Virus record (IMG/VR): IMGVR_UViG_3300035698_012088
Span: 32,001-96,000 of that record
Origin: a virus
DNA length: 64,000 bases
Reading direction: 5' to 3' (one strand)
The position numbers and the translations under genes were made by a program. Under the pieces are notes generated by a model. That model was given only the letters and a program-made list of their open reading frames with translations. It had not been told where the DNA came from and did no database searches. Each line of letters starts with the position of its first letter. The first letter of the stretch is position 1. This document shows positions 1 to 35,218 of this stretch, piece after piece.

Positions 1-66
1 AGTAGTACTAGTAGTGCAAGTAGTAAAAGTTCCTCTAGCTCAAGTGGTGAAGTTCAGCCCGATTAA
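1..66 (+). CDS. 3' end of a serine-rich protein (partial)
   Basis: Frame 1 reads SSTSSASSKSSSSSSGEVQPD-TAA; the next gene's GAGGA RBS follows. Confidence 0.7.
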   Translation, partial: SSTSSASSKSSSSSSGEVQPD

Positions 67-82
67 TTTTGAGGATATATAA

Positions 83-535
83 ATGGCAATAAAACAACCC
101 ATAGGCACAGATCCCCTAAGTAATCCAGATCATGGTCTATCACATAGAATCATAGCTGTTGATGAAGCTGCCCCAGTTAAAACAGTCACTGTAGATGAGA
201 ATGGAACCACAAGGATTGGGGATCAATCTGGCCCAGACTATCTAAAAATAGACTCTGCAGGTAATGTTACCTTTTTAGGAGATGCTACTATAGCGCTACC
301 CTATGCTAATATTCTCATGGTAGCCACTGCAGGAGCACCCTTTTCCAGTATCAAAGCTGCTAATGACTCTATTGGGGATGCCTCAGTGTCTAATAGATAC
401 TGCATTCTTGTGAATCCAGGTACTTATGTCGAAGATCCTATTATTATGCAAGACTATGTAGACATTAAAGCTATTGGGAGTGCTTGGTCCACTGTAGTTA
501 CTCCAACTGCAATAGGCGATACGTATGTCTTCTAG
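83..535 (+). CDS. Putative virion protein; C-terminal half resembles the start of a pectin-lyase-like beta-helix
   Basis: GAGGA RBS; FSSIKAANDSI...ILVNPGTYVE resembles the cap motif that opens parallel beta-helices. Confidence 0.55.
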   Translation: MAIKQPIGTDPLSNPDHGLSHRIIAVDEAAPVKTVTVDENGTTRIGDQSGPDYLKIDSAGNVTFLGDATIALPYANILMVATAGAPFSSIKAANDSIGDASVSNRYCILVNPGTYVEDPIIMQDYVDIKAIGSAWSTVVTPTAIGDTYVF

Positions 536-1553
536 TACTTCCTCCAGTAGTTCCATATCCAGTTCTAGTTCTACTTCTTCTAGCTCTTCCTCAGTATCTT
601 CTTCTGTAAGTTCTTCTAGTTCTATATCTAGTAGTTCTGAGTCTAGTTCTAGTAGTGATAGCAGTTCTAGTAGTATCTCTAGCTCCAGTAGTATTTCCAG
701 CAGCAGTTCAGTATCTTCTAGTTCTAGCAGCAGCTCTATATCCAGTTCTAGTTCTATATCTAGTAGTTCTTCTGAGTCCAGCAGTTCCTCTACATCTAGT
801 AGCTCTATATCTAGCAGTTCCTCTATATCTAGTTCAGCATTTAGTAGTCACTCTAGTGCATCTAGCTCTATATCTAGTAGCTCTTCTATATCTAGTTCTG
901 TTTCTAGTAGTAGTTCTAATTCATCCTCAAGTTCAGAGTCCAGTAGTTCTATATCTTCTTCTGTAAGTTCTTCTAGTTCTATATCTAGTAGTTCTATATC
1001 TTCTTCTGTAAGTTCTTCTAGTAGTAGTTCTACTTCTTCTAGCTCTTCCTCAAGATCTTCTAGTTCTACTTCTAGTTCTTCTGAATCATCCTCTAGTATC
1101 AGCAGTAGGAGCAGTAGTTCTACTAGTTCTTCTAAGTCCAGTAGTTCTAGTTCATCTGCCAATGACTGGGGGTCTGTTTCTATAAAAGTTACAAGAAGAG
1201 TAAGCCAAGTAGGAGAGGAATTTAGACTTCAGGCCTGGGTGACTTCAACAAGTCTAAACATCCCTGGAGAGGTTTTCTTGTTTAGGGATACTCCTAATTA
1301 CCCAGAGAACAGTCCTCTACCTTTCTATGTATTCCTTAAAACATGCTCTTATGCAGACATGATAAACTATCCTACTATAGATTCAACTTATGACACTATC
1401 TTCTATAGACAAAGAGGTCTAGATCTAACCTTTAAATCTCTAAATCAATTAAACACAGATTGGGAAGTCATAGATACTGCGCTACAGGCCCTTATAGAAG
1501 ATATAGTAGAGACAAATGGAGCTACACCTACAACAACAGTGTATAATTACTAA
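525..1553 (+). CDS. Serine-rich protein: ~210-aa N-terminal Ser tract plus globular C-terminal domain
   Basis: ORF track; TAATG coupling to next gene; globular domain paralogous to that of 1553..2116. Confidence 0.8.
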   Translation: MSSSTSSSSSISSSSSTSSSSSSVSSSVSSSSSISSSSESSSSSDSSSSSISSSSSISSSSSVSSSSSSSSISSSSSISSSSSESSSSSTSSSSISSSSSISSSAFSSHSSASSSISSSSSISSSVSSSSSNSSSSSESSSSISSSVSSSSSISSSSISSSVSSSSSSSTSSSSSSRSSSSTSSSSESSSSISSRSSSSTSSSKSSSSSSSANDWGSVSIKVTRRVSQVGEEFRLQAWVTSTSLNIPGEVFLFRDTPNYPENSPLPFYVFLKTCSYADMINYPTIDSTYDTIFYRQRGLDLTFKSLNQLNTDWEVIDTALQALIEDIVETNGATPTTTVYNY

Positions 1554-2116
1554 TGCTACAAACCACAGTACAAAAATTTAATGTAGGAGCTGCTTATAGT
1601 ACTAAGCTAGTTCTCACAGTAGTAGCAACTGCTGGAGAGGACCCTAATGTATTTGTGGTAAGTAAAGTACAGATAGCGGGGTCATCCTCTTATGAGGAGA
1701 CTTTTGAAAGTGTTGCATCTAAGGCAGACTATATAGAATATGGGACTACTCCCTCCACAACTGTCTTTTATAGAAAAGCCACTATAACTTTACTATTCAC
1801 TCCAGGTACCGATGAGACTGAAGTATTAACTGAGATCTTATCTGAGATTGAAATCACCTCAACCCTACAAGATACAGATATAGTTATAGGGACTAGTTCA
1901 TATACGTACACAGCTTCTGGGCATATTCCTTCCAGTTTTTACTTCCCCAATTTTGCATCATCAAGTGCTTCTTCTGTATCTAGCTCCAGTAGATCCAGTA
2001 GTTCTTCTAGAAGTAGCAGCTCCTCTATAAGCAGTAGCTCATCTAGTACTTCTAGTTCTAGCTCAAGTATTAGTTCAAGATCTAGTTCTAGTAGCTCTAG
2101 CTCTAGTTCTACATAG
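1553..2116 (+). CDS. Serine-rich protein: globular N-terminal domain plus C-terminal Ser tail
   Basis: Shares VF(L/V)..F...S.AD...Y.T...FYR motif series with the upstream gene; ~50-aa Ser tail. Confidence 0.8.
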   Translation: MLQTTVQKFNVGAAYSTKLVLTVVATAGEDPNVFVVSKVQIAGSSSYEETFESVASKADYIEYGTTPSTTVFYRKATITLLFTPGTDETEVLTEILSEIEITSTLQDTDIVIGTSSYTYTASGHIPSSFYFPNFASSSASSVSSSSRSSSSSRSSSSSISSSSSSTSSSSSSISSRSSSSSSSSSST

Positions 2117-33247: not shown

Positions 33248-34215
33248 TGGGATACTATCAATCAATAGGTACTAATAAAGGTTCCAGGGACTGTGAAGAG
33301 AGGTGGGAAGTTATTAAACCTTATATCCCGGAACACGGAGTTGTATTGGATATTGGGTGTGCAGAGGGATTCTTCTGTAAGAGAATAGCAGAGGAGACCA
33401 AGTGCCTAGTAGTGGGTCTTGAGAAGTCCAAGAACTGCCTCAAGAGACTTAATAACTGGTACACAGACTACTACAAGGGTAAAGTTGTTATCTGTAACAC
33501 GACCATAGATGACATAAAGGCTCAGAGAATGGCCAAAGCCTGTGACTGGGTAAACATGTCCATGCTGCTCAGTGTGTTACATTGGATTCCAAATCCAGGG
33601 GAAGTGCTTAAACATGTATCTTCTTTTTCAGAACAGGTATTAGTAGAACTACCTGATCTAGAAGATACTAGAGCTTGTGGTCAGGCCTATATGAATGAGC
33701 TTAGGGAAATAGGAGATATCAAAACATATCTAGAGAGCTGTACAGGTAGAGATGTTACTTTCATTAAAGCAGTTAAAGCCCACACCAGTGCCACCAGAAA
33801 CATTTGGCTAATTGGGGGAGATGTAGAGAGAACTTGCAGAGTTCCCCATGTAGATATGAAACTTCCTACTGCTAAGGACTGTCACAAATACCCAATTTAC
33901 AAACATACCTATGAGAAGGGGGTCCACACATTTAACCTTAAAGGCCACCACAGGCTCTTTTGGAAATCTGGAATCAACTTAGCAACCTTGAATTATCTCA
34001 ATGTAATCAAACCTACCAAGGAGTGGTTTCTGGATTGTGCCAGAGCAGAACTAGAGATCCACAAAAGAAGCAAACCCTTTAAAGGCGATGCCAGATATCG
34101 TAACATCGTAGTGGAAAGAGATGGAGTATACTGGATTGACTTAACTGATAAAGGCGGGAAGAATAGATATGAAGCAGAGATCCTTGCAATAGGACAACCT
34201 AAGGAGAGAAAGTAA
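33247..34215 (+). CDS. SAM-dependent methyltransferase with extra C-terminal region
   Basis: VLDIGCAEGFF, LSVLHW; C-terminal GDARYRNIV...WID resembles a kinase-like catalytic loop. Confidence 0.75.
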   Translation: MGYYQSIGTNKGSRDCEERWEVIKPYIPEHGVVLDIGCAEGFFCKRIAEETKCLVVGLEKSKNCLKRLNNWYTDYYKGKVVICNTTIDDIKAQRMAKACDWVNMSMLLSVLHWIPNPGEVLKHVSSFSEQVLVELPDLEDTRACGQAYMNELREIGDIKTYLESCTGRDVTFIKAVKAHTSATRNIWLIGGDVERTCRVPHVDMKLPTAKDCHKYPIYKHTYEKGVHTFNLKGHHRLFWKSGINLATLNYLNVIKPTKEWFLDCARAELEIHKRSKPFKGDARYRNIVVERDGVYWIDLTDKGGKNRYEAEILAIGQPKERK

Positions 34216-34217
34216 CT

Positions 34218-34901
34218 ATGATTGGGGACCCAAAAGGAATAGCATTTACAGAGATTAAAACAATACTCTATAAAGATGCATATAAAATAAGAAAGTACCC
34301 TAGGGATTCCTTTGACGTTATAGTGGATGTAGGGGCCAATATAGGTTACTTTTCTATGACAGCTAGAATACTCCAACCTATGGCTAAAATTATTGCTCTT
34401 GAGCCTTGCATAGAAACCTTTGAATACCTAGCCTCTAATATGGCAGGACTTAATGTGGAATGTGTACAGGAGGCTCTAGGAAAAGATAGTCCTTTGTATT
34501 TTAGAGAGATGGTGGACTGTAGAGTTAATAGGTTTATATAGAAGGATGAATTGGGAGAAGAGGGATATGAGGTAAATAGCATTTCATTATCTACCCTTTT
34601 TAAAAGATATGACATTAACCCTAAAGAACAAAAGGTTTATTTAAAACTAGACTGTGAAGGTGGAGAAAGATTTCTGATTAACCCAGAGGATGAGGCACTC
34701 TTAAAAGATATTGAACATATAGGATTTGAACTTCATTTTCAAGGAGAAGATGGTATACACCACCTTACCATGCTTCCTTGGAAAACCTATTTTGAGTGGA
34801 TAAATCGCTTATTTAGTGAAACACATAACATAGAGTATTCTCTATCTAGAAAAAAGAATGGATACGGTACGTTTAATATAATTAAAAAGGAGACGGACTA
34901 A
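34218..34901 (+). pseudogene. FkbM family methyltransferase interrupted by one in-frame TAG (34539-34541)
   Basis: ORFs 34218..34541 and 34551..34901 are in the same frame; the joined 227 codons align end to end with the 224-aa paralog at 32573. Confidence 0.8.
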
Positions 34902-35218
34902 TGGCAGAGACAGTAGGAGATTTAGTAGACAGACTTTGTATAGCCAACATTAGACTTTGGCATATAGAAGATGAGAGAAGGGCCTATGCTACAACAGCAA
35001 AAGAGTTCCCTGGAGATGTTACTAAAGAACAGGGCGTAGAACTTCTGGATAAGGTATCTCAGACCAACAAGGAGAGGAATAGTCTTATAGATCAGATCAA
35101 TGCAGCCTTTAGGGTTATAATCGATAAGGCTGTAGCTAAAGACTCTACTTTTGAGTTAACTGCAGAGGAACTCCTTGGTACTGGGAAGAATAAACATTAC
35201 AAAACAGAAGATACGTAG
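34901..35218 (+). CDS. DUF4254-like helical protein
   Basis: ETVGDLVDRL.I.N..LWH.ED..R...N.ERN.LIDQIN. Confidence 0.6.
   Translation: MAETVGDLVDRLCIANIRLWHIEDERRAYATTAKEFPGDVTKEQGVELLDKVSQTNKERNSLIDQINAAFRVIIDKAVAKDSTFELTAEELLGTGKNKHYKTEDT

Follow-up and report, generated by a model that had tools for sequence, protein, structure and literature searches.

Gram-positive serine-rich repeat adhesins carry long Ser-rich repeats that are O-glycosylated before export by adjacent cytoplasmic glycosyltransferases (GTs) of the GT4 (GtfA/GtfB) and GT8 types, and giant viruses decorate their surfaces, the capsid glycans of chloroviruses and the fibrils of mimivirus among them, with virus-encoded soluble GTs and sugar methyltransferases. 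Mycobacteriophages (Che8 and related; Freeman et al. 2023, as cited in PMC11256854 and PMC12619734) reportedly carry glycans on the C-termini of their capsid and tail-tube subunits, as seen by mass spectrometry. Carbohydrases of marine bacteria have polyserine linkers (Howard et al. 2004) that span ~110 residues or fewer and belong to secreted enzymes (PMC3124978, PMC6821194), and the longest low-complexity region in 102 phage proteomes measures 115 aa (PMC6821194). Here we analyze a 64,000-nucleotide window, bases 32001-96000 of the 159,412-bp linear IMG/VR record IMGVR_UViG_3300035698_012088 (estimated 82% complete), from an uncultured salt-lake phage whose near-identical DNA is present in salt-lake metagenomes of 12 studies, none of its listed holders being an RNA data set. 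The phage encodes four poly-Ser proteins together with a suite of putative modification enzymes, one of which, a sulfotransferase, recurs next to poly-Ser open reading frames (ORFs) across unrelated lineages, the strongest new fact of this work. Self-modification of virion proteins is the best reading of these data, one that we hold with as much doubt as confidence.

The locus resembles the Gram-positive adhesin systems in setting very long Ser-rich repeats beside GT4- and GT8-type genes. Streptococcal adhesins of this kind were the comparison drawn in an earlier annotation of the window (hereafter the original prediction). Of a GtfA-GtfB pair, the window has a GT4, whose nearest PDB matches are generic GT4 enzymes; the GT8 match falls under its cut-off, and no hydrophobic segment, signal peptide, or cell-wall anchor is predicted in the four Ser-rich proteins. 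As to accessory Sec (SecA2/SecY2), ORFs with four or more predicted membrane segments are missing from the record; SecA2 was not searched by family. Giant viruses are eukaryotic viruses that encode nucleotide-sugar synthesis, whereas neither adenosine 5'-phosphosulfate (APS) kinase nor NTP_transferase nor epimerase was found in the record, in agreement with the earlier claim that genes for nucleotide sugars and 3'-phosphoadenosine-5'-phosphosulfate (PAPS) are missing. The likeness to mycobacteriophages lies in phage GTs (here seven with Pfam support) proposed to coat the phage's own virion proteins in the cytoplasm. The acceptor in mycobacteriophages is the capsid or tail-tube C-terminus, whereas here the capsid protein (genome 27322-28272) lacks a Ser tail, indeed any Ser/Thr-rich tract, and no tail tube was identified; the phage instead has dedicated carriers of 66- to 820-residue Ser tracts and adds sulfotransferases and methyltransferases, in a system predicted from its genes. 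As in the marine linkers, tracts separate globular carbohydrate-binding or propeller domains, in the 1279-aa protein described below and in proteins of a relative, G008, but here they reach 715-820 residues, two of them are terminal, and they lie in a phage structural operon. We found no paper describing poly-Ser phage proteins paired with modification enzymes.

Poly-Ser proteins of the structural operon

The four ORFs with 66 to 820 residues of poly-Ser all lie inside or just before the window (Table 1; genes are named by their first window position), and no comparable tract was found in any further ORF of the 159-kb record. The ORF translations bear out the four poly-Ser proteins originally listed and the Ser patch in 25131. 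In the 875-aa protein, an N-terminal jelly-roll of ~160 aa is followed by a terminal poly-Ser tail of ~715 aa. The 342-aa protein begins with ~205 aa of poly-Ser and ends in a 137-aa globular domain that is weakly similar to the N-domain of the 187-aa protein (E 0.05) and to an ORF of another relative, G001. The 1279-aa protein runs from a short N-terminus through poly-Ser, a 7-bladed beta-propeller (Lactonase propeller match, E 3.4e-8), and a second poly-Ser tract to a 169-aa C-domain, which it has in common with a Ser-rich protein of sulfotransferase locus L004 (E 6e-4) and for which an Atlas lead points to beta-helix families at scores below 0.9 only. Poly-Ser thus joins two globular domains in the 1279-aa protein; the tracts of the 875-aa and 187-aa proteins reach the C-terminus and join no second domain, and because these tails end in Ser and link nothing, they are not mere linkers.

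The tracts look like genuine coding sequence. Their Ser codons mix TCN and AGY (AGY accounts for 42-47% in the tracts versus 31% elsewhere), the repeat periods of the tract DNA are imperfect multiples of 3, and another sample carries a 3-nt in-frame deletion, which together argue for real coding sequence rather than simple repeats. The four genes contain 1,463 of the ~4,556 Ser codons across all ORFs of the record, and short-read contigs break inside the tracts. A tRNA-Ser(GCU), which reads AGY, is encoded past the window end (genome 158844-158932) and, among seven related genomes, is present in that of this phage only; as support for heavy AGY-Ser translation it was discounted, because poly-Ser-bearing G008 lacks it. 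A degenerate (WSN)n DNA pattern, tried as a poly-Ser finder for whole records, was dropped for its false positives.

Insertion islands shared by Ser-rich genes and enzymes

We compared 114 relatives (35 IMG/VR records and 79 metagenome loci) and six whole genomes; G and L numbers denote genome records and loci, G000 being this phage's own record. Megablast of 10 kb against the phage collection gave zero matches, and scanning viral contigs with one protein at a time, the 539-aa protein or the GT2-GT4 fusion, gave no relatives, so that alignments were needed instead. Nearly all genes of the window are on the + strand. Its upstream flank has RNA-polymerase-like genes, a weak match to a portal protein, and the major capsid gene, whose product has more than 1,000 homologues and whose profile matches the solved capsid protein gp27 of phage G (E 1.4e-5); further on, at 42-62 kb, the window has a terminase-like gene and replication genes. 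The gene order that is conserved runs portal, RNA polymerase, capsid, P185, P99, and window genes 5725, 6567, 9481, 11662, 12156, and 35417, with 37070, 39652, and the terminase conserved on the opposite strand. The "virion module" of the original prediction is borne out only in part: the capsid gene is only 1.17 kb upstream of the first Ser-rich gene, but PHROGs yields no named family over ORFs 83-22969, the sole match being to the unannotated phrog_20100 (18783-19130).

Two islands interrupt this order. The two genes at the edge of the first (Table 1) have homologues in 25/35 and 22/35 IMG/VR relatives and in more metagenome loci. The gap from the capsid gene to 5725 is 1.3-2.7 kb in 19 relatives and far longer in 16; here it measures 9.45 kb and holds three Ser-rich genes, a 150-aa gene, a lipoprotein-like gene, a GT, and a radical SAM (S-adenosylmethionine) enzyme. 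In eight relatives whose capsid identity is 68-78% and whose DNA extends at least 2.7 kb downstream, that gap shows no poly-Ser; closer relatives in this identity range retain P185 and P99 along with the capsid and conserved genes and have neither poly-Ser nor an island. The GT2-GT4 fusion is an insertion as well: the conserved genes on either side of it are direct neighbours in several relatives. The interval from 12156 to 35417, the edge of the second island, is ~5 kb in G001 and G008 and 23 kb here, where it includes the 1279-aa protein and a 12-kb enzyme block; the enzyme cluster, estimated earlier to start ~100 bp after the largest Ser-rich gene, starts after a measured gap of 97 bp. The gap comparisons therefore put every large Ser-rich gene in an insertion island together with modification enzymes, and they support a physical coupling of the two kinds of gene in two structural-operon islands that are missing from closer relatives.

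In G008, a complete genome with 57% capsid identity, a separate island of ~29 kb follows the capsid gene. It encodes a P99 homologue, a poly-Ser protein of 240 aa, a full-length, 725-aa homologue of the 150-aa protein (P150), and proteins of 1877 and 1105 aa in which LamG/lectin-like and propeller domains are strung on Ser/Thr linkers; after these come a methyltransferase, two GT2 enzymes, a weak Maf-like match, and a B12 radical SAM enzyme. The island also holds a dNMP (deoxynucleoside monophosphate)-kinase-like gene, its enzymes being mostly non-orthologous to those of this phage. P150 itself is similar to the first ~125 residues of the 725-aa protein (E 1e-11) and to the N-terminus of a 520-aa L007 protein, and its gene may be a fibre anchor, a truncated remnant, or one half of a coupled or frameshifted pair with the poly-Ser gene. 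In 11/35 relatives (G013, G020, G024, G025-G032), a same-strand GT2 of 410-442 aa follows the capsid gene at a distance of 0.55-1.45 kb; GTs inside the head operon are thus a habit of the clade, which suggests that glycosylation linked to head assembly is common in it.

A sulfotransferase beside poly-Ser in unrelated lineages

The component most tightly linked to poly-Ser ORFs is the sulfotransferase 23067. Its family comprises at least 366 proteins, and 30 viral loci (29 distinct) were examined. A poly-Ser ORF lies within 50 bp of the sulfotransferase in L004, L007, L008, and L012, and the capsid protein of this clade is present in none of the records of these loci or of L006 (0/5). Ser/Thr tracts of at least 200 residues occur at 5/29 sulfotransferase loci versus 0/35 capsid-anchored loci (p 0.016). 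In the sulfotransferase tree, G000, L007, L004, and L006 form one clade (support 93/93), and L007 repeats the set found here, combining the sulfotransferase and poly-Ser with a GT2, a P150-like N-terminus, and a homologue of the SPASM radical SAM enzyme. A homologue of the sulfotransferase (51%) and one of the capsid protein (75%) are carried by a 180,646-bp metagenome contig. L006, an unrelated 133-kb phage contig, contains an 826-aa (TPTPTV)n ORF (1252-3729, +) 6 kb from its sulfotransferase homologue, with a longer Arg-rich shadow ORF on the opposite strand.

The two sulfotransferases originally called in the window are upheld by Pfam and by both PAPS-binding motifs, which were read by eye as GCPRSGTS (5'-phosphosulfate-binding, 5'-PSB) and RHPRAVAKS (3'-phosphate-binding, 3'-PB) in 23067 and as PKTAGTS and RNPWDRLVS in 29904; the motif columns are invariant among 49 sulfotransferase homologues. 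The model of 23067 (predicted local distance difference test, pLDDT, 90.7) aligns over residues 1-249 with many sulfotransferases. Beyond the fold matches, the family has a conserved C-terminal extension (residues ~250-350) with four invariant cysteines, C272, C284, C287, and C313, which may form a zinc-binding module.

Other modification enzymes

Of the eight GT genes first proposed, Pfam verifies seven; the second GT8-like candidate, probably 28737, has no family match (Table 1). The small GT-A-type protein 2844 also has a weak chondroitin synthase match. Searches of the PDB by sequence with six enzymes returned nothing or generic GT2/GT4 matches, and no membrane segment is predicted in any enzyme of the region. 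The GT9-like protein 24119 behaves as a core gene of the clade.

The radical SAM/SPASM enzyme and the DUF4254-like protein of the original prediction are also recognized by Pfam; the top NCBIfam matches of the former are peptide and cofactor maturases, all under their cut-offs. Its gene is split by an intein at residues ~105-465 that carries a LAGLIDADG homing endonuclease, and a relative, L039, has a free-standing LAGLIDADG gene directly 3' of its capsid gene. Four SAM methyltransferases were called and four are there, but the one described as interrupted has a single in-frame TAG (34539-34541), where contigs from two sequencing runs, including that of the probable source sample, have GAG (Glu). 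The phage encodes no suppressor tRNA, and the GAG contigs indicate that the break is a minor variant or an error, the gene probably being intact in the population. The 232-aa lipoprotein-like protein is encoded between the Ser-rich genes and the first GT.

Table 1. Positions of the genes discussed (window coordinates unless marked genome).
Feature	Position	Strand	Basis or remark
Major capsid gene	genome 27322-28272		Profile of 43 capsid homologues
875-aa protein, 64% Ser	genome 29439-32066 (3' end, 1..66)	+	
150-aa protein (P150)	83..535	+	Stop overlaps start of 525 gene by 11 nt, +1 frame
342-aa protein, 53% Ser	525..1553	+	
187-aa protein	1553..2116	+	Globular N-domain, poly-Ser tail up to stop codon
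232-aa protein	2127..2825	+	Lipobox-like N-terminus (…LVGC), two adjacent hydrophobic segments
Small GT-A-type glycosyltransferase-like	2844..3536	+	Glyco_transf_7C match, 26.3 bits (cut-off 23)
Radical SAM/SPASM enzyme	3526..5715	+	Pfam; interrupted by intein
Two conserved structural-operon genes	5725..7430	+	Mark downstream edge of island 1
GT2-GT4 fusion, 673 aa	7460..9481	+	Pfam
Seven ORFs of no known family	12499..19130	+	No Pfam match
1279-aa protein, 52% Ser	19130..22969	+	
Sulfotransferase, PAPS-type, C-terminal Cys-rich extension	23067..24119	+	Pfam
GT9-like protein	24119..25144	+	Pfam
202-aa protein	25131..25739	+	Ser patch only, ~30 residues; no family match
GT4	26761-27819	+	Pfam; nearest PDB matches generic GT4 enzymes
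GT2 + Glyco_transf_7C	27916-28740	+	Pfam
Second GT8-like candidate	probably 28737		No family match
Sulfotransfer_2 enzyme	29904-30536	+	Pfam
GT9-like, C-terminal half	30520-31179	+	Pfam
SAM methyltransferase	31154	+	Pfam
GT8-like	31752	+	23.4 bits, under Pfam cut-off 24.3
FkbM methyltransferase	32573	+	Pfam
SAM methyltransferase	33247	+	Pfam; block 31154..34215
FkbM methyltransferase with in-frame TAG	34218..34901 (34218+34551)	+	Pfam
DUF4254-like protein	34901..35218	+	Last gene before conserved 35417

Location of the Ser-rich proteins

We infer that the Ser-rich proteins are exposed on the virion. The jelly-roll of the 875-aa protein, an eight-stranded AlphaFold2 (AF2) model with pLDDT 81, has among its best solved matches the capsid cement chains 7eel_H, 7dou_4, and 8h89_J, from phages Pam1, KHP40, and GP4 (for 7dou_4, template modeling (TM) score 0.58 and root-mean-square deviation (rmsd) 4.0); its matches in a viral library are small uncharacterised phage proteins and collagen-repeat fibres. 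Upstream of the 1279-aa gene, ORFs 12499..19130 could form a tail or host-recognition block, the 539-aa protein having an Atlas lead to tail-tip families at scores of 0.80-0.84 only. The predicted jelly-roll, the propeller, and the lack of membrane segments would fit surface proteins that are modified in the cytoplasm, without amounting to proof.

Proposed self-modification of virion proteins and its alternatives

We posit that long unstructured Ser tails and linkers sit on proteins at the outside of the particle, one tail being anchored by the cement-like jelly-roll and another protein, fibre-like and propeller-bearing, being encoded at the end of the structural block. Soluble phage enzymes of the same late operon would act on these proteins before lysis, while they are still in the host cytoplasm, with nucleotide sugars, PAPS, and SAM supplied by the host. 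The sulfotransferase 23067 would be the likeliest enzyme to act on the Ser-rich proteins, while the GTs and methyltransferases would probably build and cap short O-linked glycans on these or other virion proteins. Acceptor and chemistry are predicted from the gene content, and the modification may be a glycan or sulfate placed straight on Ser.

Several observations weigh against this proposal. The link between GTs and poly-Ser is not strict across relatives: G012, G018, G020, and G031 show 7-9 GT2/GT4 matches but lack poly-Ser, their Ser/Thr patches being short, while G001 encodes a Ser/Thr-rich protein of 1031 aa in a genome where GT2/GT4 gave no match, in part the pattern that the original prediction named as grounds for refuting it; and the capsid-adjacent GT2 enzymes of the 11 relatives come without poly-Ser, so that head-operon GTs need no such acceptors. 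Co-occurrence is supported by the joint islands here and in G008 and by the recurrent adjacency, but not as a rule for the clade, and the O-glycan scaffold reading of the original prediction is supported only in part. The GT9-like 24119 is kept elsewhere in the genome in 5/6 relatives (30-52% identity, full length), which means that the enzyme cluster is not one dedicated pathway; the sulfotransferase is missing from 34/35 relatives, and its more distant family members have no Ser/Thr-rich neighbour. On the structural side, the jelly-roll is a common fold, its TM-scores are modest (0.40-0.58) and matched by plant-virus jelly rolls, none of its 36 homologues has a Ser tract (0/36), and PHROGs names none of the supposed tail ORFs. 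Membrane-free peripheral GTs also act on lipid-linked host glycans, so the enzymes, though soluble, may have a host target, and modification of the Ser tracts is probably best regarded as a prediction from gene content.

A host target is the core of the rival account that survives best, rather unlikely as we judge it: the enzyme islands would remodel the host envelope, be it lipopolysaccharide (LPS) core, O-antigen, or capsule, and the Ser tracts would be unmodified spacers of adhesin fibres that share the same variable slots. Remodelling could serve superinfection exclusion or block re-adsorption of progeny. Pathways for surface polysaccharides typically include GT9 (heptosyltransferase-like), GT2, GT4, and GT8 enzymes, FkbM methyltransferases, and sulfotransferases, variable slots gather unrelated accessory genes, and some relatives have GT clusters but no poly-Ser; in G008, moreover, Ser/Thr tracts clearly join LamG and propeller domains, as do the polyserine linkers of marine carbohydrases (PMC3124978). 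Yet the record lacks an initiating phosphoglycosyl transferase, a flippase, and any polytopic protein of the polymerase type, all of which the host could supply; the enzymes are encoded within the late structural operon and in its direction, not in an early or lysogeny region; two of the Ser tracts are terminal tails, not linkers; and the sulfotransferase stays next to poly-Ser in unrelated lineages.

A second account, which we consider improbable, shares the virion target of self-modification and changes its chemistry: the sulfotransferase would sulfate Ser hydroxyls directly, yielding a polyanionic sulfoserine brush, and the GTs would serve other acceptors. It is prompted by G036, G038, and G040, where the sulfotransferase/poly-Ser pair stands with no GT2/GT4 within 100 kb, so that sulfate might sit on Ser itself and not on a glycan; other GT families were not searched in these three lineages. 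Both PAPS-binding motifs of 23067 are intact and Foldseek ranks protein tyrosine sulfotransferases first, but in VIA-align tyrosylprotein, polyketide, glycopeptide, and heparan sulfotransferases tie (Z 11-12.6), and we know of no bacterial or phage serine O-sulfotransferase. Least probable of the rivals is that the GTs, as in T-even and other phages, hypermodify bases of the phage DNA and are unconnected with the Ser-rich proteins: DNA-glycosylating phage GTs are familiar enzymes (Pyle et al. 2024, cited in PMC12619734) and the G008 island holds the dNMP-kinase-like gene, but the idea is made unlikely because no thymidylate-synthase-like hydroxymethylase (PF00303) was found in the record, itself only 82% complete, and the genes lie in the structural operon and not in the replication module, with sulfotransferases and FkbM sugar methyltransferases that fall outside known DNA glycosylation pathways.

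Implications for phage surfaces

If the tracts are modified, tailed phages beyond the mycobacteriophages would use enzymes of their own to build a dense, mucin-like coat, possibly a sulfated one. Its dedicated carrier proteins would exceed in length, several-fold, every low-complexity region so far reported from cultured phages. Such coats would change views of surface chemistry, adsorption, aggregation, and the avoidance of immunity or grazing in environmental phages. A bolder version, to which we give only a slim chance, is that poly-Ser virion proteins and a dedicated sulfotransferase constitute a mobile module in which Ser, or a minimal glycan on it, is sulfated to form a heparin-like polyanionic brush. 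Such a modification of proteins is not known from bacteria or phages, and in a salt lake a polyanionic coat could hold water around the particles and stop them from sticking, or it could imitate the surface polymers of the host. The sulfotransferase/poly-Ser pair is small, recurrent, and soluble, and it could yield a new protein-modifying enzyme.

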